Positions 4,365 through 27,258 of a DNA stretch of 48,068 nt are shown piece by piece. Below the pieces are notes generated by a model. The model saw only the letters and a list, made by a program, of their open reading frames with translations, was not told the DNA's origin and did not search any database. This DNA is from Candidatus Gottesmanbacteria bacterium (GTDB lineage: Bacteria > Patescibacteriota > Microgenomatia > UBA10105 > UBA927). The stretch's first letter is position 1, and each line of letters begins with the position of its first letter. The stretch spans positions 110,714 to 158,781 of the forward strand of contig JAUXTO010000042.1 of the NCBI GenBank assembly GCA_030679255.1. Reading direction: 5' to 3'. The translations under genes were made by a program, and so were the position numbers.

Positions 4365-4680
4365 CGCTCCCAGAGGGAATCCCTGCCCGCTAGCGCCTGA
4401 GCCTAGCTCTGGCAGGCGGGGAACCTTCATTTCCTCTTTACCTGCCCGCCGCGCCATTAATAAAAAAGTACGGCTGTATGCGCTCCCGGTGGGAATCGAA
4501 CCCACAACCTACTCTTTAGAAGAGAGTTGCTCTGTCCATTGAGCTACGGGAGCCTATCGGTAATTATACAACGGGTTAAGATTTTCTGCGCGCTTTGGCA
4601 GGCGGGGAAGAGAGGTGCCCCGCCTGCTACACCTCCAGCGTAGCTCTGGCGGGCAGGTCTATCCGTTGAGCTATGGGAGC
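4365..4680 (-). pseudogene. Interrupted outer tRNA-Arg(TCT) with three palindromic insertions, one containing an intact tRNA-Arg(TCT)
   Basis: Joining 4680-4658, 4618-4607, 4440-4421 and 4381-4365 gives GCTCCCA TAGCTCAACGGATAGAGCA CCTCT CTTCTAA AGAGG AAAT GAAGG TTCGATT CCCTC TGGGAGC G, a full cloverleaf. Confidence 0.85.
4481..4553 (-). tRNA. tRNA-Arg(TCT), nested
   Basis: Acceptor GCTCCCG/CGGGAGC, anticodon arm ACTCT-CTTCTAA-AGAGT. Confidence 0.95.
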
Positions 4681-5989: not shown

Positions 5990-6253
5990 ATGTATTATCT
6001 TTATTTTTTAAAGAGTTTAAAAAATCAAGAAGTATATGTAGGAAGTACCTCTAAACACCCGGAGGTGCGACTACTTGAACACAATAACGGTTCCAATAAG
6101 TGGACTAGACAAAATAGACCGTTAAAGTTAGTCTATTTTGAAAAATATCACTGCAATAAAGATGCAAAGTCTAGAGAATTATTTTATAAATCAGGGGTAG
6201 GAAAAGTTGTAAAAAATATAATAATTGAAGCCTTTGAAAAGATTTCTAAATAA
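5990..6253 (+). CDS. Small GIY-YIG nuclease family protein
   Basis: YYLYFL…YVGST…RLLEHNNG…T…RPLKLVYFE…A..RE…KSG.G. Confidence 0.9.
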   Translation: MYYLYFLKSLKNQEVYVGSTSKHPEVRLLEHNNGSNKWTRQNRPLKLVYFEKYHCNKDAKSRELFYKSGVGKVVKNIIIEAFEKISK

Positions 6254-6257
6254 TATA

Positions 6258-6287
6258 TCGTCCATAGGACGACTAGCCTTTGGCTAG
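6258..6287. repeat. 30-nt double-hairpin repeat (second copy at 5934-5963)
   Basis: TCGTCCATAGGACGA-CTAGCCT(T/A)TGGCTAG occurs as a direct repeat on both sides of the GIY-YIG gene. Confidence 0.85.
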
Positions 6288-6291
6288 CATT

Positions 6292-6364
6292 GGTGATCGT
6301 AGCACAATGGTAGTGCACCAGCTTGTGGAGCTGGGCGTTGCGGGTTCGAATCCCGTCGGTCACC
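6292..6364 (+). tRNA. tRNA-His(GTG)
   Basis: G-1, acceptor GTGATCG/CGGTCAC, C73, anticodon arm CCAGC-TTGTGGA-GCTGG. Confidence 0.95.
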
Positions 6365-6400
6365 CATTCGACAGGCTCAGGGTTTACGACCCAAGACAGT

Positions 6401-6673
6401 ATGGAGTGGTACGTGTATATTCTTCTTTGCGATGAGAAAACTTTTTATGTGGGATTAACCTCTAATTTAAAAGAAAGACTGCATTCTCATAATTCTAAAT
6501 ATAATATCGGTACGAAAAAGTTTTCTCATATTGAGTTGGTCTATTCTGAAAAACATCCCGATCGGAAATCTGCTGAATATCGTGAAAAACAACTCAAACG
6601 CTGGACACACGCAAAGAAGAAAGCATTAGTTGAAGGAAATATCGAATTATTGAAACAACTGAGTAAATCCTGA
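6401..6673 (+). CDS. GIY-YIG nuclease family protein (UPF0213/YhbQ-like)
   Basis: WYVYILLC…FYVGLT.NL.ERL..HN…LVYSE…A..REKQLKRW…KK.AL; flanked by the inverted repeat CATTCGACAGGCTCAGG / CCTGAGCGTGTTGAATG. Confidence 0.9.
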   Translation: MEWYVYILLCDEKTFYVGLTSNLKERLHSHNSKYNIGTKKFSHIELVYSEKHPDRKSAEYREKQLKRWTHAKKKALVEGNIELLKQLSKS

Positions 6674-6716
6674 GCGTGTTGAATGATCGACGGTTAATGG
6701 TGAGCAAAGTCGAACC

Positions 6717-6734
6717 ATCCCGTCGGTCACCCCA
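6717..6734 (+). repeat. tRNA-His 3'-end copy 1
   Basis: ATCCCGTCGGTCACCCCA. Confidence 0.9.
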
Positions 6735-6854
6735 AGAGCTAAGTCGTTAGAGAATTCCAACTTTAAAGTAATATATTTGATTCAAAGCTATATTAAGATC
6801 CTAGCGTGGTTAGCTATTTCATATCAGGTAAGTATGATTTAAAATCAACTTATC

Positions 6855-7760
6855 ATGGTTATTAGCTCGGTATCCGAAGAAAATATATTTTACGAATTGC
6901 TTGATAATACTAAAGATAATATCAAATACGCTTTTGAAAATAATTGGCCATATATTCTACAAGCCACGCGAAATGGATATATGACATATGGCGATACAGA
7001 AACAAAAGTGTATTATACTAAACGATTTCCTAACGTAGAAAGATCGCCTATTGTGATAGTAAATGCACTAGGGAGATACCCTAGAGAATGCATAAGTAAA
7101 CTTGCACTGAATAATCATAAAAATAACATTAATACAATTGTAAAAAACGTTCCTTCTAATAATTTGCAGTGGTGGCTGGAAAATAATTTTACCGAAACAA
7201 CGACACCCTGGAGTCATTATTCGATAAAGGATGATAATACTTTCCCACAATATATTGTTCTTAACGAGACAATACTGCTCAAAGGTTTTAAAGAAGATGT
7301 AAAGTATCAAATCAATCGTTTTCAAAAAAGACCAATCTCTACAATTCAATATTCAGAAAATTATAACAAAGAAGCAATGCGTCTACTTGATGATTTCTCG
7401 ATTTATTCTCAAAATAAAGGAAATGATTATGCTAATGAAGTTAAAAATGGACATTTATTTTTTTTTGATAATTTAATTCAAAAAAGAATCAGGTTTGCAC
7501 ATATTGAAAACGATAGATTAATAGGTTTTTCATTTTTAACTCCTGTGAATAATATAATTTTTTATAATGCTGTTATATGCCAATACGAAAGAAACATTAT
7601 GAAATATTTGGTGTACCAAAGTTTAAAGTTACTAGCAGAGAGAAATATATACAAGTATTTTTGTATGCAGGGTTCAGAAAATGAGGGACAAGACTATTTA
7701 AAAAAACGACTTGGTGCATCAATAGTAATTCAGAAAACACACTTGACTTATTCCCCGTAG
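6855..7760 (+). CDS. AT-rich hypothetical protein, possibly GNAT-fold (DUF2156/FemAB-like)
   Basis: 301-aa ORF. RLIGFSFL and the C-terminal YFCMQGSENEGQDYLKKRLG resemble aminoacyl-transferase GNAT C-termini (weak). Confidence 0.55.
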   Translation: MVISSVSEENIFYELLDNTKDNIKYAFENNWPYILQATRNGYMTYGDTETKVYYTKRFPNVERSPIVIVNALGRYPRECISKLALNNHKNNINTIVKNVPSNNLQWWLENNFTETTTPWSHYSIKDDNTFPQYIVLNETILLKGFKEDVKYQINRFQKRPISTIQYSENYNKEAMRLLDDFSIYSQNKGNDYANEVKNGHLFFFDNLIQKRIRFAHIENDRLIGFSFLTPVNNIIFYNAVICQYERNIMKYLVYQSLKLLAERNIYKYFCMQGSENEGQDYLKKRLGASIVIQKTHLTYSP

Positions 7761-7995
7761 TCATCAATGAGATTATTTAACTACTTTAGGTGCCAGCAGG
7801 TGTAGTCTCTAAAACATTTAGCGATTTATACACAACACTCAACAATACAGCCTCTCTAGAATTCTCCATGAAATACCTTGCTAGGTTGGCATATAGTCCC
7901 GTTGGGGACCCACAGTTCGACAAGCTCACTGTTCAAGTGAGTTTGGCGGAGTGTGAGCGATGGGATGAGAAGTTTATACTGAGCTTGCCGAAGTA

Positions 7996-8014
7996 AATCC
8001 CGTCGGTCACCCCA
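7996..8014 (+). repeat. tRNA-His 3'-end copy 2
   Basis: AATCCCGTCGGTCACCCCA, preceded by the REP-like GAGAAGTTTATACTGAGCTTGCCGAAGTA. Confidence 0.9.
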
Positions 8015-8084
8015 ACCTTTTTAGCTTCAAGTAACTTAATCAAACTATTCTAATCCAAAACTGGACTTGAACTACTTGTCAAAA

Positions 8085-8624
8085 TTAAACAAGTTCTTCC
8101 TTCCGCAACTCCATGATATAAGTGGGATCAGGCTCATTATGAATTTGTACTGTTTTTACATATTTAAACCCTGCTTTTTTGTATGCCTTAATTGCTCTGG
8201 TGTTATTTGGTTCCGGGCCAATGATGCAGGTATTTATACTATTATTTGCAAAAACAATTTTTTTAAGAAACTTTTTTATCATCTTATTTCCTAATTCTCG
8301 ACCCATAAATGAAGTGTCCCCTATAAATAAATCTATACTTGCAGTGTTGTCATCATACCCTACATGGTTTCCAAACTCGGGCCAATCATTCACTTTATAT
8401 GTTTGCATATAGGCAACTGGTTTTTTACCATATAAAACTATATAACAATCCGTTGGTTTTTCTCCTTTTATTTTCGGAGCATAACGTTTAGTAATTGCTT
8501 CCAGTGTATTTTCTTTGTCTTTGTCATACCATTCATGCACATGAGGTTCATTAAGCCATTTATGCATGAGGTCTAAACCGGCTAGTTGGAGTCTTTCAAA
8601 AGAAATAAATTTCGGATTAAGCAT
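8085..8624 (-). CDS. GNAT acetyltransferase, AAC(6')/Acetyltransf_8-like
   Basis: WLNEPHV.EWY, AYMQTY, IDLFIGD….GRELG, PEPNN.RAIKAYKKAGF. Confidence 0.85.
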   Translation of the reverse strand: MLNPKFISFERLQLAGLDLMHKWLNEPHVHEWYDKDKENTLEAITKRYAPKIKGEKPTDCYIVLYGKKPVAYMQTYKVNDWPEFGNHVGYDDNTASIDLFIGDTSFMGRELGNKMIKKFLKKIVFANNSINTCIIGPEPNNTRAIKAYKKAGFKYVKTVQIHNEPDPTYIMELRKEELV

Positions 8625-8795
8625 GTGTATATTGTATCATTTGGGGACTATAAAATCGCAAATGCGGATCTTAAAAATACCAACTTTCGTTGGTTTCAAT
8701 GAACTATTTATAGTAAGTCCTTACATCGTTCGATAGTCTACCCACAGAACGATGGGGTGAGAAGTTTACCCTGAGCGAGTCATCGAGTCGAATGG

Positions 8796-8815
8796 GAATC
8801 CCGTCGGTCACCCCA
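8796..8815 (+). repeat. tRNA-His 3'-end copy 3
   Basis: GAATCCCGTCGGTCACCCCA, preceded by the REP-like GAGAAGTTTACCCTGAGCGAGTCATCGAGTCGAATGGG. Confidence 0.9.
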
Positions 8816-18509: not shown

Positions 18510-18601
18510 AGTGAGATCATACCAGCAGGTCATGTAGGAATCCCTACCTCCATACATCTGAACGATGCTCTGACAGGAGGGAAATTTCCAAAAAAGCTCT
18601 G

Positions 18602-18672
18602 CAGGGACGTCCCGATTCGGACGGGAAATTAGGATTTTGGAGATCCTTGTGATGCCATTTCACTACGTCCCT
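18602..18672 (-). tRNA. tRNA-Trp(CCA)
   Basis: Acceptor AGGGACG/CGTCCCT, anticodon arm AGGAT-CTCCAAA-ATCCT; T-loop TCCGAAT. Confidence 0.92.
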
Positions 18673-19328
18673 ATTTGCTTGATCCTAAAGGAATTGTAGA
18701 GTGATGTGAGTTCCTTTGCAACTTTACTGTCATAATAGGTAATGGCAAGACAACCTGGATAATTTTTATGCATATTTTTCCCCGTGTTAGGTTTCATATA
18801 TGAGCGATTAAATTGCGCTTTTGGAATTCCAGTTATTTTCTGCCAAAAAAGTCTTTGTTTCGTCTCGTTGTGATATTGATGTAAATGCATCAACGCCCGA
18901 AACTTTTTTTCTTCCAGAGTATATCCCGCCCGAAGAAACTTTAAAAACAATTTTATTAGTTGGGGGTCAGAGTTCGTAAACTTTAGGCTATTTTGGTTTT
19001 TGCTTCCTTCACACCAATAGAGTAGAGAACAAAAGAGTTGAGATAGCTCTTTTGAACTCGGAATTTTATTCAATGAACAACTCGCCTTTAGAGCAATTTG
19101 TTCATTTATGATCGATGCTTTTGCAAGCAAAATATTTCTTGACATTTCTTGACCATATATTCTTCTTTGATTTAGCCTAGCTAAGGCTTGAGAATCAAGG
19201 TACGTTTCTCTCAGCCATCGAGAAGCTGTACCGGGTGAAATTTTGAACAATCTGGCTATCTCTTTAATGGAGTAACCTAATTTTCTGTAGTTTTTTGCCT
19301 TCTTTATGATTTCCTGATTATACCCCAT
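18663..19328 (-). CDS. HTH plus LAGLIDADG-like hypothetical protein
   Basis: N-terminal HTH (R.LGYSIKEIARLF.IS.GT.SRW), LYWCEGSK, FTNSDP.LI.LFL.FL; its stop codon falls inside tRNA-Trp. Confidence 0.75.
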   Translation of the reverse strand: MGYNQEIIKKAKNYRKLGYSIKEIARLFKISPGTASRWLRETYLDSQALARLNQRRIYGQEMSRNILLAKASIINEQIALKASCSLNKIPSSKELSQLFCSLLYWCEGSKNQNSLKFTNSDPQLIKLFLKFLRAGYTLEEKKFRALMHLHQYHNETKQRLFWQKITGIPKAQFNRSYMKPNTGKNMHKNYPGCLAITYYDSKVAKELTSLYNSFRIKQIGT

Positions 19329-19384
19329 AGGTTATATGACTATTTTAGTGGGTACGATAATAGATGTCAAATTGATGTGAGAGA

Positions 19385-19897
19385 TTATGGGAGTAGCGTG
19401 ATTGAGGATATGAGCTTACGGAATGCCTCACCGCGGCCGGCGAGGAACACATCGAGCTTTGTACCCGGATGACGGAAAATAAGTGAATCAACGGAAGCAC
19501 TGTCAGTCGCCAGTTGCGTATGATACAGTTTTGCTGCCGTCGTCCCAACGCGGATATCTTCTATCGATGATTCTGAAACCATAGGTTTTGGAATATTTTT
19601 TTGACAGGTCATGAGGATCCCATCATCCGGATTATTGCCGGTAAACGCCGCGCTACCCGAGGCGTTTTCCAATACACGCAACGATGCAGGGTAATCAAAT
19701 GCCACGTTACAGAAAGAGTTACGGTATGGTTTTACATCAGATGGTATCGATTGGCCGGTGGTGAGAACGGTGGGAGTTGGAAATGAGATGGAGCTCGATG
19801 GAGTAGCGGGCGTCAATTTTCTGCCAAGATTCACTCCAATGAGAAGTGCTGCTATAACGGCGAGAAGACTCACAAGCAAGTAGGTATTTCGATACAT
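19385..19897 (-). CDS. Single-TM hypothetical protein (PsbP-like extracellular domain?)
   Basis: TM helix, P/T/S linker, Y.N..C.V.F.YP motif. Confidence 0.6.
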   Translation of the reverse strand: MYRNTYLLVSLLAVIAALLIGVNLGRKLTPATPSSSISFPTPTVLTTGQSIPSDVKPYRNSFCNVAFDYPASLRVLENASGSAAFTGNNPDDGILMTCQKNIPKPMVSESSIEDIRVGTTAAKLYHTQLATDSASVDSLIFRHPGTKLDVFLAGRGEAFRKLISSITLLP

Positions 19898-19905
19898 GGC
19901 TTCCC

Positions 19906-20079
19906 TTAATCCAATTTGCCTGATTCTTTGTGTTCCGTATGCTTCCGGCACTTTGGACAATATTTGCGCAGTTTCAGTTTTTCCGGCGTGTTGAGCTTAC
20001 TGCGCTCAGTCATATAGTTTTGACATTTGCAAACAGTACAAGTAAGTCCTGCGATAATCCGTTGTGCTTTCTTGGCCAT
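19906..20079 (-). CDS. rpmG: 50S ribosomal protein L33
   Basis: Below the ORF-track cutoff: MAKKAQRIIAGLTCTVCKCQNYMTERSKLNTPEKLKLRKYCPKCRKHTEHKESGKLD. Confidence 0.95.
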   Translation of the reverse strand: MAKKAQRIIAGLTCTVCKCQNYMTERSKLNTPEKLKLRKYCPKCRKHTEHKESGKLD

Positions 20080-20099
20080 AACGACATTATACCCGAATT

Positions 20100-20531
20100 T
20101 TACGGTCGCTTCAAGAAGGTGACGTCTATGCGTTTTGCTTCAAAAAAGTCCTGACAAAATTGTGCCGTCTTTTCCATATCATACCAGACACAGGAAAAAA
20201 TATTGATATAACAACTTTTTTTATATTCCGAAAAATGCCCGGTCACAGAACTCGTTTCGATAAGCTGAACCATAGAGTACCCGGCAGTAATAGGATTTTC
20301 ATGACCGAAGTGGGGTATAAGCGGCTCACCGTACCGCTTCATATGGATCACGCGGTCGCAAAGTTCTATGATAAATCGCTTGATTTCTTCACCGGATGAA
20401 ATTTTTTTAAGATTACAATCATACAGATTGAGGACTAGCTCTTGTCCAAAAAAATCTTTTTCATGCGGATTGATATTTTTAAGCATATATGTAGATAACG
20501 GTATTTTCTTCTGTTTGTCAATAGTCGTCAT
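20100..20531 (-). CDS. S-adenosylmethionine decarboxylase family protein
   Basis: FGQELVLNLYDC, GYS.VQLIETSS.TGHF, YINIFSC. Confidence 0.8.
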   Translation of the reverse strand: MTTIDKQKKIPLSTYMLKNINPHEKDFFGQELVLNLYDCNLKKISSGEEIKRFIIELCDRVIHMKRYGEPLIPHFGHENPITAGYSMVQLIETSSVTGHFSEYKKSCYINIFSCVWYDMEKTAQFCQDFFEAKRIDVTFLKRP

Positions 20532-20549
20532 GCATTATACTACGGCCAT

Positions 20550-21413
20550 ATGTCCTACATCGGCTTTGCGTGGATTACGGCCATACTGTATTCATCGAGT
20601 TTTCTTGTTGGGAAATACTCGACCAAACATAAAATCGCCAATCCATGGCTTTATAATTTTATCTGGTCTTTTATCATCGTCATACTGTCAACGATAATCG
20701 CAATTTTTCAAGGCGCCGGCATTCCGCACGATTGGAGAAGTTTGGTACTTGCCGGTTTTCTTTCCGCAATTGCCTCGGTGACCTATACATTGTCCATATA
20801 TTTACTCGATGTCACCGTTCTCGGGCCGCTCTATAACTTCAGAACGCCTATGGCTGTATTATTGGGAGTACTCATGTTTGGAGAAAAGCTATCAATGAAT
20901 CAGATGATGCTCATCGGTATCATGACCATAGCGGGAATGTTTATCAGTATGGACGAACGGTTTAGCATACGTACTTTTTTTCGCAAACCCATTGCCTTTG
21001 CCTTGCTGACTATCGCTGTCTCCGCACTTTATAACGCTAGTTTAAAATATGCAAGCGTTCAAAACGGCTATTGGAGCACGGTTTTGTGGTTTAATATCAT
21101 AAATCAGGTGTTTCTTGTCGTCACGGTACCGTTATTTTGGAAAGAATTGCACCGCGTGAGACCCACAGATTATATTCACGTTTCTATTTCTGCAGTCTTG
21201 GCTGGCCTGGGTGGTATCACGGTCATCCCGGCACTCCTTGGAAACTTAGGCATTACGGCAGCAATTTTATCTCTTCCTATCGCTATGGTGATTGCCATTG
21301 CATTATCCGTTGTCGCGCCACACCTCTTAGAAAAACATCCCTGGAAGGTGTATGCGGTGCGTCTCGGTGCCGCAGCCGTTATGTTTGGCAGCGCACTCAT
21401 GCTTTCCCGCTAA
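20550..21413 (+). CDS. EamA/DMT family transporter
   Basis: About 10 TM helices; LLGVLMFGEKLS motif. Confidence 0.8.
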   Translation: MSYIGFAWITAILYSSSFLVGKYSTKHKIANPWLYNFIWSFIIVILSTIIAIFQGAGIPHDWRSLVLAGFLSAIASVTYTLSIYLLDVTVLGPLYNFRTPMAVLLGVLMFGEKLSMNQMMLIGIMTIAGMFISMDERFSIRTFFRKPIAFALLTIAVSALYNASLKYASVQNGYWSTVLWFNIINQVFLVVTVPLFWKELHRVRPTDYIHVSISAVLAGLGGITVIPALLGNLGITAAILSLPIAMVIAIALSVVAPHLLEKHPWKVYAVRLGAAAVMFGSALMLSR

Positions 21414-21429
21414 GCAATTTTTCCGTTTG

Positions 21430-21677
21430 AGCCCAGAGAAGGAATTGTCATGCGAAGCGTGATTTGGCTTCGCCAGAAACCCACGACCGAGTTCTTACCG
21501 CGCTCGCCGCGCCTACCTTGAGCCCAGAGAGGGAATTGAACCCTCGACCTCTTTCTTACCAAGAAAGCGTTCTGCCGCTGAACTATCTGGGCGCTATGGC
21601 GGGCGAGCCAAGAACTCGCTCCCCGCCTGCAACGCTTAGCCTAGCATTGCGGGCAGGTACCACTGAGCCATTCGGGC
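21430..21677 (-). pseudogene. Interrupted outer tRNA-Thr(GGT) with three insertions, one containing an intact tRNA-Thr(GGT)
   Basis: Pieces 21677-21658, 21621-21608, 21497-21478 and 21447-21430 join to GCCCGAA TGGCTCAGTGGTAGAGCG AGTTC TTGGTAA GAACT CGGTC GTGGG TTCAATT CCTTC TCTGGGC T. Confidence 0.8.
21521..21592 (-). tRNA. tRNA-Thr(GGT), nested
   Basis: Acceptor GCCCAGA/TCTGGGC, anticodon arm CTTTC-TTGGTAA-GAAAG. Confidence 0.95.
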
Positions 21678-21729
21678 GCAATAAAGACAATTGTATCATG
21701 GATAAATAATTGTATGAAGTACAAAAAAC

Positions 21730-22245
21730 TTATGGCTGAGGTAATACGAAAGTTTGTGTACAGGAGGCCGTTTGATTGCTGTCATTTTTGAGCAGAACAT
21801 CGACAACCGTTGGTACGTTTGCCTCGAGTTCAAGAGAAGGAGAGTCGCAGCGAAATATTCCACCGCCTCGAGCTACATCCTGAGTAAGAGAACTCTGTGC
21901 GCTCGTCGTTGCGACAACTTTTCCGGCGACACTGACACTAAAATTGCACATGACTTTTTTGGTCGTCATGAGATCAGCCCCCTCTACACCGATAAAATAT
22001 TTCGGGAATCCGACAACGGGATTATACCATTGACGTTCACACGCCAGTCCAACGATAGGTCCAGGAGTCGGGGATACTTCAACGATCGGAGTGACTACTT
22101 CATTCCCTGTCTGAACCGGGGCATTTGTGGTCTTAGGTCGAAGAAAATAAACACCTCCGGCAATCGCAGCAAGAACAACCGCACCAATGACATAGTACAT
22201 CATCGACCCGTTTGTTTGTGTTTCTTCTGTGTGTTGTTCTTCCAT
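21730..22245 (-). CDS. Single-TM hypothetical protein with Cys pairs
   Basis: TM helix, PT linker, Cys-containing beta-rich domain; the start could be 22263. Confidence 0.65.
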   Translation of the reverse strand: MEEQHTEETQTNGSMMYYVIGAVVLAAIAGGVYFLRPKTTNAPVQTGNEVVTPIVEVSPTPGPIVGLACERQWYNPVVGFPKYFIGVEGADLMTTKKVMCNFSVSVAGKVVATTSAQSSLTQDVARGGGIFRCDSPSLELEANVPTVVDVLLKNDSNQTASCTQTFVLPQP

Positions 22246-22367
22246 ATCAACCACTATACCCATCTATATTTATCAATGCAAGGGTCAATTTTTTTATAGG
22301 ATATTGGCGTACCTAAAGATTGTTCCTGTCAACATTTTATATCAAAATCGGCTATAATAACCTTTAC

Positions 22368-22455
22368 GCTGAGGTGGCGGAGCGGACAATCGTAGTAGAC
22401 TGTAAATCTACCGGCCGAAAGGCCTACCCAGGTTCGAATCCTGGCCTCAGCACCA
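22368..22455 (+). tRNA. tRNA-Tyr(GTA)
   Basis: Acceptor GCTGAGG/CCTCAGC, anticodon arm GTAGA-CTGTAAA-TCTAC, variable arm, encoded CCA. Confidence 0.95.
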
Positions 22456-22494
22456 CTTCGCTAAAGCTTCGCGGTGCACGGCACATTTTTTGCT

Positions 22495-22806
22495 ATGCTT
22501 ATCCGAAAACGACTCATCGATAAAACGACCAGATTAAGCACACTGACCAATGCAATTGCCCATCGGTATCGTTTAGCAATACTCTATTTATTGGCCCATG
22601 ATCCGAAGGAAACGAGGGAACTTGCTTACGCCCTTGCGATACGGGAACCGCTCCTCATTCATCATGTACAAATTATGGTCAAATCAGGCTGGCTCAGACG
22701 GATTAAAACCGGCAGGCATGTGACGTATGAGTTGAAAGAAGATTGCGCTATAGAACTCAAGAAGTTTTTAGGAGATACTCCGTTTTTTCGTAATTTGAGC
22801 CGATGA
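22495..22806 (+). CDS. ArsR family winged-helix transcriptional regulator
   Basis: AIAH.YRL.IL.LL…….ELA..L.I….L.HH…M..SGW….K.GR.V.Y.L. Confidence 0.75.
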   Translation: MLIRKRLIDKTTRLSTLTNAIAHRYRLAILYLLAHDPKETRELAYALAIREPLLIHHVQIMVKSGWLRRIKTGRHVTYELKEDCAIELKKFLGDTPFFRNLSR

Positions 22807-22998
22807 TCCCGCTTAGCGGGACAACCTTCGCTTTATCCCAGTACCATTTAGCTCGCCTTTGTTTGGAGCCTCCCAACAGAATCGAACTGTTATCAGCGGT
22901 TTATCCCAGTACTTCTTGCTGGCGACACTATTGAGCTGGCGGGGAGGATCGGACTCCCGACCTACTGTTTATCCCAGTACCATTTAGCCGACGTCTTG

Positions 22999-23070
22999 AG
23001 CCGACGAGAGGATTTGAACCTCCAACCTTCGCTTTACAAAAGCGCTGCTCAACCATTGAGCTACGTCGGC
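22999..23070 (-). tRNA. tRNA-Thr(TGT), innermost and intact
   Basis: Acceptor GCCGACG/CGTCGGC, anticodon arm GCGCT-TTTGTAA-AGCGA. Confidence 0.93.
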
Positions 23071-23084
23071 GTAAATGTACGGGA

Positions 23085-23129
23085 CTAACTCACAGTATAA
23101 CTCACTTCGTTCGCTAACTGTGAGTTGAG
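23085..23129. repeat. 45-nt hairpin element (second copy at 23301-23345)
   Basis: CTAACTCACAGTA…CTCACTTCGTTCGC..ACTGTGAGTTGAG, two near-identical copies at tRNA anticodon split points. Confidence 0.85.
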
Positions 23130-23476
23130 CAAAACAGTTGCTCGGACTTTATCCGCCTCTGGCGGAACTGAGCTACGCCAGCTTAGAAGTACGGGATCCC
23201 GCACCTCTAAGCCAAATTGTACAACAATTTGGCAAGATGGTGCTGGGACAAAACCGTCGCTCTGCCGTTGAGCTAGGGAGGCGAGCATAAATGTACGGGA
23301 CTAACTCACAGTATTACTCACTTCGTTCGCAAACTGTGAGTTGAGCAAAACAGTTGCCCCGCCCGCTACGCCTGAGCGTTAGCTCTGGCGGGCAGGTCTA
23401 CCACTGAGCTACGCCAGCAACTCGTATTGAAATTGTACCAAAGACTACGAAGATCAACAACATTTGAGGTTAAAGA

Positions 23477-23698
23477 GTGGAAGTAAAGAAATAATTCCGC
23501 CTGCCAGCAATGCTTACGCAAAGCGTTTGCAGGCTGGCCCGGTAGGATGAAGGTATTTTCCCCGATTTGATCAATCGGAAGGACCGTCTCACTGACCAAG
23601 GCCAGTGAAGAACTTTAGTCCTGTCTCCTGCGCCAAAAATTGGTGCAGAATACCTCATTGTTCATGATTTTGTGGAGGAAAATATTCTCCATCTCCAC
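23477..23698 (-). ncRNA. Putative 6S-like rod-shaped RNA carrying two palindromic inserts
   Basis: Minus-strand TTGACA-17-TAAGCT promoter upstream. Terminal stem GTGGA/TCCAC, stems ATGAGGTATT/AATACCTTCAT and AGGAC/GTCCT around a central bubble, apical TCACTGGCC/GGTCAGTGA; no convincing ORF. Confidence 0.5.
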
Positions 23699-23728
23699 AC
23701 GGGCATAATCAGCTTATCGATTACAAAT

Positions 23729-24379
23729 TCATTTGTCAAGAGCGGCAAAAAAGAACCGGTTATTCGATATAGAAAAGTCTCGAACATCATGGAATATTGT
23801 TTTCAGTGTAATGTTCAACGTATTTGATTTTTTCAGATAATCAAGCTCACGGAGATAGTTGACGATCACGACCCCCTGCGGTTTCAGACAGCGTTTCAGT
23901 GATTGATAAAAAGAAGGTAAAGTAACAAATTCCGGAATGATCCGTCCGATAAAAAGATCGATGACGATCAAATCATAGCTATGAGCCGGTGGAGCACTGA
24001 TGTATTTTTTAGCATCATCGACGATAAACTGTATGAACGGGAACGAATCAAATCCAAAATATTTTTTGGCGATCGATATAATCGTTGCATCGATGTCAAC
24101 CGCAGTTATGTAGGGCTTGACTGTGCGTTCGGAGAGAATTCTCATCACCGTCCCACCTCCTACTCCTAACACGAGAATAGACGGCTGGTCCGGAAATTGG
24201 GGTAGCCCAAATGCATCGATAGCTTTTTCCCATAACTCCTGGATGGTCGGCCCTGACTGCCGGGAACCATTAACGAGTAATCTTCTCACCCCCCATTCTT
24301 CCATGACCCGTATATCTTGATTGTACCGGGAGGATGTATGAAGAAGCGTACGGGGAATGAGGTACGACAAAAGGGACAT
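23729..24379 (-). CDS. Spermidine-synthase-like SAM-dependent methyltransferase
   Basis: ILVLGVGGG, TAVDID, DDAKKY, YDLIVIDLF, LKPQGV.IVN. Confidence 0.82.
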   Translation of the reverse strand: MSLLSYLIPRTLLHTSSRYNQDIRVMEEWGVRRLLVNGSRQSGPTIQELWEKAIDAFGLPQFPDQPSILVLGVGGGTVMRILSERTVKPYITAVDIDATIISIAKKYFGFDSFPFIQFIVDDAKKYISAPPAHSYDLIVIDLFIGRIIPEFVTLPSFYQSLKRCLKPQGVVIVNYLRELDYLKKSNTLNITLKTIFHDVRDFSISNNRFFFAALDK

Positions 24380-24380
24380 A

Positions 24381-25055
24381 TCAGATAAATCGGGCGATAG
24401 GCAATAAGAGTCCAAGAATAAAACTGATAATGGGTGAAATAATTTGATGAATCGGCGATACGCCGCCGCCAAGGGGAAGAATGAGGAAAATGAGGAAAAT
24501 CATGCCATAGCGTTCAAGCCCGGCCCACTGATGTGCGTACTCTTCCGGGAGTATTCCCCCGACAATTTTAAATCCGTCCAACGGATGAATGGGAACGAGG
24601 TTAAAGATAGCAAGGATAACGTTATAGATAATGAGAGGTTGTAGGAGACTAATAATAAAATAAATGAATAATTGAATAATCGAATAATTGAATGTGGAAA
24701 CACCGAAGCGCATAAGCACATTGAGAAGTATAGAGCATACAAGGGCGAGTAAGAGGTTGCTTACGGGACCGGCGAGAGATATGAGGGCGCTGTCGCGGCG
24801 CGGGAACCGGAGGTTATAGGGATCAAACTGGACGGGTTTTCCCCAACCAAACCGAACGATTAAAAGCATAATCGTGCCGATCGGATCCAGATGAGCAAGC
24901 GGGTTAAGGGTGAGACGACCCATGAGCCTTGGCGTCGGATCACCCAGCCGGTCCGCGGACCACGCGTGGGCAAATTCATGGATAGTAATGGCGATAACCA
25001 ATGCGAGTATTCCCAATAGGAAACCCAGGGGATCAGTGGAAAGTTCTCCGAGCAT
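24381..25055 (-). CDS. Site-2 protease family (M50) zinc metalloprotease
   Basis: HEFAH, GDPTP…GRLTLNPL.HLD, AGPVSN, FNLVPIHPLDG. Confidence 0.92.
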   Translation of the reverse strand: MLGELSTDPLGFLLGILALVIAITIHEFAHAWSADRLGDPTPRLMGRLTLNPLAHLDPIGTIMLLIVRFGWGKPVQFDPYNLRFPRRDSALISLAGPVSNLLLALVCSILLNVLMRFGVSTFNYSIIQLFIYFIISLLQPLIIYNVILAIFNLVPIHPLDGFKIVGGILPEEYAHQWAGLERYGMIFLIFLILPLGGGVSPIHQIISPIISFILGLLLPIARFI

Positions 25056-26646: not shown

Positions 26647-27258
26647 TTATTTAAGAATAATCTCTTCCAGCGCTTCTTTGCCTTCCGCATCCTTTACTGA
26701 TTGGTAGAGCTTTCCTTTTTGTTCGAGCACCCGATGGGTGAAAAGGATACCATTGGTGTGGTCCGTTTCATGTTGGAGGATCGTCGCCATAAAACCGGTA
26801 AATTCTTCTTCGTGGGATACGCCGACTTCATCCTGGTAGCGCAAGGAGATGCCGCTAGCACGCTTCACTCTCCCCCAAATTGCGTCAATCGAGAGACATC
26901 CTTCGAGTTTATTATCTGGCGAAGCCAGATCCCGCTTCGCAGGATCCCACTCGGGCCCGACTGCAACGCTATGCGTAGCATTGCGGGCAGGAACTCCTTC
27001 AGTAAGAGCATCAGACCGCTTGATGATTTCAGGATTAATAAATACCCGGATCGGATCATCATCCTTTGGACGAGTGATAAACATCCGGAGGGCAAAGCCT
27101 ACCTGCGGCGCGGCAAGCCCCACCCCTTTGGGTTTACGTGTTGCCCGGAGAGTCTTCTTCATGTCTTCAATAATGGCAATAAGTTTTGAATCAAAGACTC
27201 GTATTGATTCAGCGGGTCTTGTTAACACATTGTGCGGTACTTTTACTATCTGTTTCAT
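26647..27258 (-). CDS. def: Peptide deformylase
   Basis: GVGLAAPQVG, EGCLS, QHETDH; carries in-frame palindromic inserts. Confidence 0.95.
   Translation of the reverse strand: MKQIVKVPHNVLTRPAESIRVFDSKLIAIIEDMKKTLRATRKPKGVGLAAPQVGFALRMFITRPKDDDPIRVFINPEIIKRSDALTEGVPARNATHSVAVGPEWDPAKRDLASPDNKLEGCLSIDAIWGRVKRASGISLRYQDEVGVSHEEEFTGFMATILQHETDHTNGILFTHRVLEQKGKLYQSVKDAEGKEALEEIILK

Follow-up and report, generated by a model that had tools for sequence, protein, structure and literature searches.

The nested tRNA locus at positions 21430-21677 (minus strand) of the window, by which we mean the whole 48,068-nt stretch of Candidatus Gottesmanbacteria DNA analysed here, was probably left behind when a miniature mobile element carrying a tRNA replaced the resident gene, an event which a cell would survive only if the cargo matches the host gene. 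At this site an intact tRNA-Thr(GGT), the cargo, lies within the anticodon loop of an interrupted tRNA-Thr(GGT), here called the shell. The reading draws on this anatomy, on shells that decay while cargo is conserved, on the precise insertion of palindromes, on the recurrence of the arrangement with other cargo and in other genomes, and on nesting at several levels, all of them directly observed. Selection is the presumed cause of the match between cargo and host, and a single-strand transposase of the HUH/Y1 type is a candidate for the element's enzyme.

Anatomy of the nested loci

The inner tRNA-Thr(GGT) occupies 21520-21592 of the minus strand, where it is called by ARAGORN and matched by the Rfam tRNA model over 21521-21592 (69.5 bits, E 3.2e-13). 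No other Thr(GGT) gene turned up in the assembly, and it is presumably the functional copy; CCA is absent from its encoded sequence. The shell is composed of four pieces, which follow one another on the minus strand in the order 21677-21658, 21621-21608, 21497-21478 and 21447-21430. The first provides the 5' acceptor strand, positions 8-9, the 5' strand of the D-stem and the D-loop; the second the 3' strand of the D-stem, position 26, the 5' strand of the anticodon stem and loop positions 32-35; the third loop positions 36-38 (TAA), the 3' strand of the anticodon stem, the variable loop, the 5' strand of the T-stem and the first two bases of the T-loop; and the fourth the remaining T-loop, the 3' strands of the T-stem and acceptor, and the discriminator. 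Three inserts, likewise on the minus strand, separate them. In the D-loop lies a 36-nt palindrome (21622-21657), a copy of a dispersed family that we call family A, with termini CCTGCCCGC...GCAGGCGGG, and in the T-loop a 30-nt hairpin (21448-21477) of a second dispersed family. The anticodon loop is split by 110 nt (21498-21607), which comprise the 15-nt left arm of the cargo element (21593-21607), adjoining the first base of the inner tRNA, the inner tRNA itself, and 22 nt (21498-21519) of short A-rich spacer and right arm.

These insert coordinates agree exactly with those of a preliminary description of the DNA, which had also taken the split to be compatible with 35/36 before TAA, with an ambiguity of one or two G. 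The junction of the 110-nt insert with the shell slides by up to two G, and when all three inserts were cut out by coordinate ARAGORN called a 73-nt tRNA-Thr(ggt) in each of the nine junction variants tried. Pairing in the reconstituted shell is imperfect at three places, with a mismatch in the acceptor (A6.C67), a G.U pair and a mismatch in the T-stem. With the anticodon insert alone removed ARAGORN makes no call, and with no insert removed it calls the inner gene only. With anticodon introns allowed it recovered none of the shells, since the D- and T-loop inserts break them too; this mode flagged one tRNA-Met with a 189-nt intron. The proposal that inverted termini enclose the intact tRNA is borne out by arms at 21485-21508 and 21598-21621 (24 nt, 79% complementary). 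The shell 3' end also resembles the inner gene as claimed: 21427-21447 in the shell and 21518-21538 in the inner gene are identical at 20 of 21 positions, while the shell end of a congener differs, which fits the earlier notion of a chimera. Gene conversion may lie behind this chimeric 3' end.

In the predicted RNA fold the two arms pair, lengthening the shell anticodon stem, with the inner cloverleaf on top. The whole 252 nt fold at -116.2 kcal/mol (z -3.65; none of 200 shuffles equal), the hairpin of the 36-nt insert at -22.8 kcal/mol (z -4.1; 0/200 shuffles as good) and that of the 30-nt insert at -12.6 kcal/mol (z -3.5; 2/200 as good). The shell anticodon stem retains perfect pairing in this genome, which counts against taking the shell as dead. 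A promoter-like site with -35 and -10 elements and an extended TG lies 13 nt upstream of the shell's first base (21690-21718, minus strand); it is a consensus match only, with 9 of 12 consensus matches, and is the one such site in 21350-21800, where shuffles give a mean of 0.4 sites.

Two further nested loci are present in the window, and in all three, Arg(TCT), Thr(GGT) and Thr(TGT), the cargo anticodon equals that of the host, as the preliminary description had stated. The Arg(TCT) locus (4365-4680, minus strand) is a shell with an intact tRNA-Arg(TCT) (4480-4553) in its anticodon loop, enclosed by arms (4441-4606) of the same family as those at Thr(GGT), and with family-A copies in its D-arm (4619-4657) and T-loop (4382-4420). 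At Thr(TGT) (22797-23418, minus strand) the intact gene (22998-23070) sits within at least two complete concentric Thr(TGT) shells, beyond which lie two more halves, an unpaired 5' one and a 3' one; its arms belong to a different, longer family. Nesting is three deep in some loci, and at least three deep at Thr(TGT). A palindromic repeat around tRNA-Ala(GGC), returned by a flank-complementarity screen, proved unrelated and has no shell. Nothing convincing was found in the assembly for tRNA-Asn, intact or interrupted. One contig ends within a tRNA, so that the assembly loses tRNA genes at its breaks. Att-like repeats of a tRNA 3' end lie beside tRNA-His in the window.

Shells and cargo across genomes

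The inner gene is 100% identical between this genome (G000) and a congener (G003), while the two shells are 85% identical and that of G003 has lost its anticodon-stem pairing. Compared with uninterrupted Thr(GGT) genes, the G000 shell reaches 92% identity in a family member (G023) and 88% in G008, against 81% with its own inner gene, which marks the shell as the native tRNA gene of the lineage, now decaying. The uninterrupted genes of G023 and G008 are not obviously syntenic, and no syntenic locus was found that lacks the cargo insertion. In G015 a cargo 97% identical to the G000 inner gene, with related arms, occupies the same position in a shell of 77% identity that has its own self-consistent acceptor and anticodon stems. 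Such near-identical cargo with related arms in so different a shell argues that the arm-plus-tRNA unit is mobile.

The smaller inserts have left their own traces. The D-loop site is empty in G003 and filled in G000, an exact gain of 36 nt with zero duplicated bases; the palindrome thus inserts precisely and without target duplication. The 30-nt T-loop insert is identical in G003 and G015, at the same position of shells that differ, which requires either repeated site-specific insertion or co-transfer. A further copy of its family lies at 26915-26944 of the window, and copies occur in seven other genomes, including G003, G015, G016, G026, G027 and G034.

Arm-plus-tRNA units were counted in this genome and its relatives, in a collection of genomes at species level and in metagenomes. 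Only the conserved arms served to delimit an element, since free-junction ARAGORN is uninformative: the anticodon becomes arbitrary when the junction slides, and chimeras arise between adjacent tRNAs. When every deletion boundary is screened for stem-loops, each locus has hundreds of chance solutions, and such a screen is no test alone. Class-wide and collection-wide pattern scans gave chance matches lacking a tRNA at 7 of 12 places (the reversed-pattern control also gave 7), in 15 of 19 stretches and in 17 of 25 stretches. Thirteen distinct loci of one arm family were recovered, with Thr(GGT), Ile(GAT), Ile(TAT), Arg(TCT) or Ala(CGC) as cargo. The shell anticodon equals the cargo anticodon in every one of them, so that the match first proposed from the three loci of the window also holds beyond it, and none of the units lies outside a tRNA gene.

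The insertion point falls between positions 35 and 36, before T36-A37, in 12 of the 13; the remaining unit carries Ala(CGC), which has no T36, and is placed in the T-loop with the same arms. The earlier suggestion that T36-A37-A38 marks the targets stands in part: the T36-A37 rule holds for the 12 anticodon-loop inserts of this arm family, but position 38 is A in nine and C in three, and other arm families split elsewhere, at 32/33 (Leu CAA), 34/35 (Trp CCA) and 37/38 (Arg CCT). Of the 12 anticodon-loop loci, 11 have shell flanks that, once rejoined, make a canonical 7-nt loop on a 5-bp stem with every base paired; the other, the decayed shell of G003, has one mismatch. The loops re-form at exactly 7 nt around the cargo inserts, which leaves no duplicated target bases. 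Cargo of a single Ile(TAT) lineage is found in five different shells from different samples. Five cargo types on one arm family, each exactly at the hairpin tip, is a point that we count against our preferred reading. In this genome, at least 7 of the 47 tRNA genes are such replacements. The host is a groundwater bacterium, whose DNA is listed from the probable source run only and from no RNA run.

Dispersed palindromes and Y1 transposases

Family A is a near-perfect 36-nt palindrome with 44 short copies spread over many contigs, and with copies in relatives too. None of the short copies has room for a gene, and the cargo arms are related to the family. Open frames of at least 200 aa contain about half of the 44, and nearly every copy in long frames measures 30, 36, 39, 42 or 48 nt, all of these lengths being divisible by three; two 47-nt copies and the overlapping C2 and C41 rows depart from this pattern. 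GluRS contains two in-frame copies in a protein that is otherwise full-length (E 4e-126 to 1j09), which indicates that the copies are DNA insertions that are translated, not spliced. Six of the 44 are located in tRNA shells, which represent less than 0.1% of the genome, a skew that needs strong targeting of tRNA-like DNA and that we likewise count against the preferred reading. The flanks of the 44 insertion sites share no single word, and no conserved tetranucleotide is evident among them. At the anticodon-loop sites of one arm family, T-A stands on the complementary strand directly before the element in 12 of 12.

The genome has nine matches to the Y1 transposase (PF01797). An exact family-A terminus lies within 1.2 kb of two of the nine Y1-type genes, five others having one-mismatch matches only, and none of the nine is flanked on both sides by the palindrome.

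Origin of the nested loci

In the scenario that we put forward, the element would be a non-autonomous palindrome, two complementary arms around a complete tRNA-Thr(GGT), that inserted between positions 35 and 36 of the native tRNA-Thr(GGT) without target duplication, the arm family preferring, it would seem, a loop site just 5' of T36-A37. The insertion would kill the resident gene and turn it into a decaying shell, with the cargo taking over its function. Given one gene per anticodon, a cell should be viable only if the insertion restores the tRNA that it destroys, which would explain why cargo equals host; loss of the element would then be loss of an essential gene. The cargo is probably transcribed from the shell promoter as one precursor, in which the arms would extend the old anticodon stem; RNase P and 3' processing might free the inner tRNA, with CCA added afterwards. 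Later, cargo-less palindromes of related families would have entered the dead shell, in the D-loop, once the congener had diverged, and in the T-loop, while later elements would invade the new functional copy and so build Russian-doll loci.

Alternatively, the match could be built in and not only selected, the cargo guiding the element to its target through the similarity of its own tRNA to that of the host, whether in DNA or RNA pairing or in recombination between homologous tRNA sequences. Such homing, which we hold to be unlikely, would account for the finding that none of the 13 cargo elements lies outside a cognate tRNA gene when most cargo-less family-A copies are in ORFs or intergenic DNA, for a match that holds even in the T-loop Ala(CGC) element, and for repeated re-invasion of the same gene in nests three deep; the near identity of the shell and cargo 3' ends (20/21) would also fit recombination through that end. 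However, cargo and shell are only about 73-81% identical, the acceptor stem being the most different part, and the same cargo occurs in differing stems (G000 versus G015; the five Ile(TAT) shells), so that long homology is unneeded. The fixed 35/36 point before T-A with four cargo types, and the T-loop placement of the cargo lacking T36, point instead to a short site preference, and the cargo-like 3' end is missing from the congener shell and so arose later. A quite improbable scenario dispenses with a mobile unit altogether: a palindrome would stall replication in place, and template switching would copy the resident tRNA into the hairpin tip. The anticodon match would then call for neither selection nor targeting, and some sequences agree with it, namely the Ile(GAT) body, which cargo and shell have in common down to an unusual T-loop, and, for Arg(TCT), acceptor stems that are one base apart. 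Nevertheless, cargo of 97-100% identity sits in shells 15-27% apart, whose stem differences are compensatory; the Ile(TAT) cargo of one lineage recurs in five unrelated shells from different samples; and the acceptor stem of the cargo is usually unlike that of its shell at most positions. The small sample suggests that the cargo phylogeny is incongruent with that of host and shell.

Could the shell still be functional, its hairpins and tRNA-bearing insert being introns removed from the RNA before the halves are rejoined, as a bacterial analogue of archaeal multi-intron tRNAs in which the intron also sets a tRNA free? All three inserts do lie in loops and form clean hairpins with the exon junction at the base, the anticodon stem of the G000 shell is intact, and the same D-loop and T-loop positions have been struck repeatedly in different shells. 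Yet we consider this highly improbable. RtcB (PF01139) and tRNA-intron endonuclease (PF01974) gave no match in this 95% complete genome, where absence is not thereby proven, while controls matched in 10 and 4 of 14 genomes, respectively; at E up to 10 the inserts match none of the intron or ribozyme families of Rfam, and window positions 1-47000 match none of its intron families; shells gain stem mismatches and small deletions while cargo stays identical; and the same palindromes in ORFs keep the frame and are translated. An artefact of assembly or binning, or the footprint of an ordinary integrase-borne island that duplicates part of its tRNA target, can hardly be entertained. MAGs often break at repeats and tRNA genes, as the contig ending in a tRNA illustrates, and ordinary att-like repeats do occur beside tRNA-His. 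A second assembler, though, returned window 20900-23700 on a 13,115-nt contig with 0 differences over these 2.8 kb (depth 28.6; the same reads, from the probable source run, and so not independent data), and the nested architecture is also found in genomes and metagenomes of other records. Moreover, the insert is 110 nt and the shell halves are adjacent, with no gene between them in the ORF list for 19000-24500 and no integrase or island in or beside the insert.

Replacement by a tRNA-carrying miniature element might be extended to self-targeting elements that home into the chromosomal gene of their own tRNA, become indispensable and sweep repeatedly through Gottesmanbacteria-like CPR lineages, a generalization that we find doubtful. 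If true, it would describe an addiction or drive system on the translation apparatus and a natural programmable insertion tool for tRNA genes, and each Russian-doll locus would be a stratigraphic record of sweeps. Cargo lineages might, in this view, change identity by anticodon mutation, the Ile(GAT) and Thr(GGT) units having their arms in common and sharing ~75% of sequence.

Relation to known elements and implications

Rickettsia has palindromic elements (RPE) that, like similar small repeats, enter protein genes in frame and RNA genes as well. Family A resembles them in being short, palindromic, non-coding, dispersed and tolerated in frame in a housekeeping gene (GluRS, twice), but differs in its length of 30-48 nt, the lack of target duplication, the strong enrichment in tRNA loops and a derivative with a complete tRNA at the hairpin tip. 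REP/REPIN sequences are moved by RAYT, and hairpin-ended IS200/IS605 derivatives by Y1 (HUH) transposases. With both of these family A shares short imperfect palindromes, tens of copies, precise insertion without target duplication and the presence of Y1 genes in the genome. It departs from them in that many of its copies are intragenic, where REP/REPIN sequences are extragenic, that the Y1 genes are not palindrome-flanked, as a RAYT gene is, and that no conserved flanking tetranucleotide is evident at its 44 sites. IS200/IS605-derived hairpin elements insert 3' of a fixed tetra- or pentanucleotide, a trait on which the T-A at the 12 anticodon-loop sites and the absence of one word common to all family-A sites point in different directions. 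To our knowledge, tRNA cargo is undescribed for REP/REPIN or IS200/IS605 elements. Among the hallmarks of a classical, DDE-derived MITE, terminal inverted repeats and non-autonomous dispersed copies are present, but a target-site duplication is not. A literature search confined to main texts, with few subscription journals among them, yielded no account of bacterial tRNA genes nested in one another or of bacterial palindromic elements that carry a tRNA.

Integrative elements and prophages, among them tyrosine-integrase islands, target tRNA genes and carry a replacement for the displaced part; tRNA gene fragments at island ends are treated in PMC9897764. Like such islands, the Thr(GGT) element lands in a tRNA gene, keeps up the tRNA supply and leaves dead tRNA pieces, and in both cases the intruder makes good the damage that it does. 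In contrast to them, it is some 110 nt long, has no gene but the tRNA and supplies a whole tRNA instead of a 3' segment; both halves of the old gene wrap the new one, giving concentric shells and not tandem att repeats. In Archaea, tRNA introns at non-canonical positions and split tRNAs have been described (PMC4090602, PMC4033280), and, as portrayed there, the introns parallel the shell inserts as short hairpin-forming interruptions of D-, anticodon and T-loops that are seemingly transposable between tRNAs. The Thr(GGT) locus departs from them in belonging to a bacterium whose genome gave no match to the endonuclease or the ligase, and in having a whole substitute gene within an interrupted gene that is itself in decay. 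Nor does Rfam detect the catalytic core of a group I intron, the Thr(GGT) insert being arms and tRNA only. Among eukaryotes, Dada DNA transposons insert at fixed sites inside tRNA and snRNA genes (PMC3706591); according to that account they are autonomous DDE elements with 6-7 bp target duplications, rendered harmless by multicopy targets, whereas here the target is single-copy and harm is avoided through the cargo. Finally, insertion sequences and introns are reported from rRNA genes of CPR bacteria (PMC11270868, which has 0 occurrences of 'tRNA' and so does not deal with tRNA genes); these concern the same broad lineage and structural RNA genes, but they reside in rRNA and, as described there, often encode homing endonucleases.

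Usually viewed as passive landing pads for large integrating elements, tRNA genes that are single-copy and essential would here be replaced repeatedly, in reduced genomes, by the smallest conceivable element, two arms and a tRNA. Selfish DNA would in this manner become indispensable without a toxin. Such turnover bears on the horizontal exchange of tRNA sequences in lineages with one gene per anticodon, and on the annotation of CPR tRNAs, where shells and interrupted copies mislead gene finders. An enzyme that places DNA hairpins precisely in the loops of tRNA genes might also be of practical use. The concentric shells represent a rare ordered fossil record of successive invasions. Succession is visible in G034, where the middle-level shell has the acceptor type of the still-functional Ile(GAT) in G020.

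The nested tRNA-Thr(GGT) locus and its conserved copy

The genome under study (1.45 Mb in 44 contigs, 46.9% G+C; the window comes from contig C29) contains 47 tRNA genes according to a whole-genome ARAGORN search. The sole Thr(GGT) gene found among these in the assembly is an intact gene on the minus strand at 21520-21592, recognized by both ARAGORN and Rfam. Around it we read from the sequence the two halves of an outer tRNA-Thr(GGT) on the same strand (21677-21430), with three interruptions: 36 nt in the D-loop (21622-21657), 110 nt in the anticodon loop (21498-21607), where the junction slides by up to two G, and 30 nt in the T-loop (21448-21477). When the three inserts were excised by coordinate in a script and the remainder was given to ARAGORN, a 73-nt tRNA-Thr(GGT) was called for 9/9 junction variants; its acceptor stem and its T-stem have one mismatch each, and there is one G.U pair. 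With the anticodon insert only removed, no tRNA was called. The termini of the 110-nt insert are complementary and, in the predicted fold, prolong the outer anticodon stem and place the inner cloverleaf at its tip, while the 36-nt and 30-nt inserts are both predicted to form strong hairpins. The coordinates and anatomy in the preliminary description, including inverted termini enclosing an intact tRNA and a junction ambiguous by 1-2 G, are thus borne out by ARAGORN, Rfam, insert excision and folding. A second assembler's contig from the probable source run, built from the same reads, is identical across 2.8 kb of the locus, which rules out an artefact of binning or scaffolding but nothing else.

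The cargo, as we call the inner tRNA between its complementary arms, is conserved, and the shell, or outer gene, is dead. We searched relatives with the nested locus as query and read the matching loci. The shell is 92% identical to an uninterrupted tRNA-Thr(GGT) in a member of the same family (G023), 88% identical to that of another relative (G008) and only 81% identical to the inner gene; it looks like the native gene of the lineage. The congener G003 has the same nested locus with the same left flank. Given that the inner genes of the two genomes are 100% identical while their shells are 85% identical and the G003 shell has lost its anticodon-stem pairing, the inner gene is under purifying selection, and the shell is what remains, in decay, of the gene native to the lineage. 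The region has a single promoter-like site, a consensus match, 13 nt upstream of the shell, and so the inner gene would probably be transcribed through the shell's 5' half and then freed by the normal tRNA end-processing enzymes. The resemblance of the outer 3' end to the inner gene, previously taken as a sign of a chimera, amounts to 20/21 identical positions; this is not so in the congener, which suggests a later local gene conversion.

Palindromic inserts and nesting across loci

Palindromes have entered tRNA loops precisely and without duplication. The D-loop insert belongs to a 36-nt palindrome family, which has 44 short copies in the genome and further ones in many relatives; the site is empty in the congener, and the gain is exactly 36 nt with no duplicated target bases. 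Two Ile shells, from other genomes, hold the palindrome at this D-loop position as well, and 6/44 short copies lie in tRNA shells, though such shells occupy far less than 0.1% of the genome. About half of the 44 copies fall within long ORFs and on their coding strand, and nearly all of these have lengths that are multiples of three. Two in-frame copies occur in an otherwise full-length glutamyl-tRNA synthetase (locus L025, C38:207604-207639 and 208201-208236), and single copies in many long ORFs (about 20 others); the in-frame copies have two copies of a heptamer repeat on either side. As their lengths and the full-length synthetase show, the copies are DNA insertions that are tolerated, and they are translated rather than spliced out. 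In a 42-nt variant, oriented the other way, the flanking heptamers differ. The T-loop insert is a member of a second dispersed hairpin family, found at this T-loop position also in the G003 shell and in that of another relative, G015. At window 26915-26991 (C29:137628-137704) a copy of this family lies 11 nt from a 36-nt palindrome copy with no tRNA gene near. The arms around the inner tRNA resemble the 36-nt palindrome, and in the Leu(CAA) locus the tRNA takes the exact place of the palindrome's apical loop.

The arrangement recurs in other genes and genomes, with nesting several levels deep. At least 7/47 tRNA genes of the genome are enclosed by a shell that can still be read and has their own anticodon (Thr GGT, Thr TGT, Arg TCT, Arg CCT, Ile GAT, Leu CAA and Trp CCA; for Arg CCT the shell was read by eye and has one stem mismatch), and partial shells remain at Thr CGT, Pro GGG and Pro CGG. 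At the window's Thr(TGT) locus two or more complete shells enclose the live gene, there are further halves without a partner, and the arms are of a second, longer family shared with Trp(CCA). Downstream of each of the tRNA-Pro(GGG) and tRNA-Pro(CGG) genes (C38:243620-243750 and C36:20610-20735) lies a module of ~120 nt, similar in the two, that contains hairpins and has a Pro-like acceptor 3' end at its terminus; upstream of Pro(GGG) is a Pro-like 5' half bearing a third hairpin family, which also adjoins tRNA-Cys and occurs in the Ile shell.

In G015 the same Thr(GGT) cargo (97%) occupies the same position in a shell that is only 77% identical, with its own self-consistent acceptor and anticodon stems. 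Since compensatory stem differences arise while a tRNA functions, the two insertions are most likely independent. Ile(TAT) cargo of a single lineage is found in five different shells, and a further relative, G034, has three concentric Ile(GAT) genes, the middle shell being of the acceptor type of the still-functional gene in another genome (G020). Thr(GGT) and Ile(GAT) units have their arms and ~75% of their sequence in common, and cargo lineages may therefore, speculatively, change identity by mutation.

Cognate insertion and its possible mechanism

For a census of elements we set boundaries by the conserved arm motifs alone, so that junctions were not picked by outcome, and covered the whole genome, every locus fetched from relatives, a one-genome-per-species collection (19 stretches matched the arms, 4 with a tRNA between them) and metagenomes (25 stretches, 8 with a tRNA, 4 of these new once duplicates were removed). 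The scan demanded both arms plus T8-A9-G10 in the cargo, and diverged elements were thus missed. It yielded 13 distinct loci, those of related genomes not being independent of one another, with cargo Ile(TAT) in five, Ile(GAT) in four, Thr(GGT) in two and Arg(TCT) and Ala(CGC) in one each; 0/13 lay outside a tRNA gene. In 12/13 the flanks re-form a 5-bp stem and 7-nt loop with the cargo's anticodon, fully paired in 11/12 (one mismatch, in the decayed G003 shell). The Ala(CGC) element, whose tRNA has no T36 in its anticodon loop, is found in the T-loop of an Ala(CGC) shell, and that shell has an intact anticodon loop. The anticodon match noticed in the window therefore extends to 13/13 arm-defined loci across genomes and metagenomes. 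The proposed T36-A37-A38 rule survives in part: 12/12 anticodon-loop loci have the element between positions 35 and 36, directly before T36-A37, but 9 of them have A and 3 have C at position 38, Ala is hit in the T-loop, and other arm families split the anticodon loop at 32/33, 34/35 and 37/38. Two more loci with variant left arms were read by eye; the Thr locus of G015 matches and the Ile locus of G020 is ambiguous through a small deletion.

A short site preference, together with lethality of every non-cognate hit, is the best explanation of the match. The element would prefer the loop position right before T-A, or the T-loop where that position is unavailable, and a non-cognate insertion would be lethal because there is one gene per anticodon. 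That the cargo itself guides target choice seems unlikely to us; the lack of solo elements among the loci found leans towards such guidance. The element would travel as single-stranded hairpin DNA, moved by a trans-acting enzyme, for which Y1 (HUH) transposase is a candidate only, given nine matches in the genome and no physical association found there between these genes and the palindrome. Removal of the inserts from RNA is disfavoured: neither RtcB nor tRNA-intron endonuclease domains were found in this 95% complete genome, and no Rfam intron family matched the inserts.

Lineage and other tRNA loci

The organism is a CPR (Microgenomates-type) bacterium; 401 sampled members of its class have genomes of ~0.5-1.8 Mb. 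Its DNA is contained in one sequencing run only, a groundwater metagenome, and two Gottesmanbacteria records carry the same arms. The G003 contig with the nested Thr(GGT) locus (L040, the same as L002) is publicly filed as 'uncultured Gammaproteobacteria', which conflicts with its placement beside Gottesmanbacteria-type genomes. A full-text literature search, with subscription journals mostly outside its scope, turned up no bacterial case of one tRNA gene nested in another or of a palindromic element that carries a tRNA, and provisionally we regard them as not yet in print; a survey from 2024 on insertions in the rRNA genes of CPR bacteria makes no mention of tRNA. The elements belong with small palindromic mobile repeats and with tRNA-targeting elements that repair their own target; new is the unusual twist of a whole-tRNA cargo with recursive self-replacement.

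Other tRNA loci differ in kind. In G032, from another family of the class, locus L012 has a complete tRNA-Thr(GGT) and, ~55 nt downstream, a second copy running from D-stem to 3' end, its anticodon loop interrupted by 21 nt; such a tandem remnant is of another kind than the nested shells. No tRNA-Asn was found in the assembly under study, which has two tRNA-Tyr and two tRNA-His genes. A second tRNA-Trp(CCA) called by ARAGORN (18601-18672), below the Rfam gathering score, adjoins an HTH-domain ORF (18663-19328). Contig C22 (70 kb) has a single stop-free frame of 21,156 codons over most of its length, suggesting a giant gene. At C23:86575-86835 a tRNA-Met whose 5' end is initiator-like is interrupted at the anticodon loop by 189 nt, by appearance a putative group I intron, and a GIY-YIG ORF lies just downstream. 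Genome-wide, 5/8 small GIY-YIG ORFs are within 250 nt of a tRNA gene; two lie directly on either side (~5990-6196 and ~6407-6619) of tRNA-His (6293-6365; region 5990-8813), downstream of which three exact 16-18-nt copies of its 3' end (6717-6732, 7996-8012 and 8796-8813) resemble stacked att sites.
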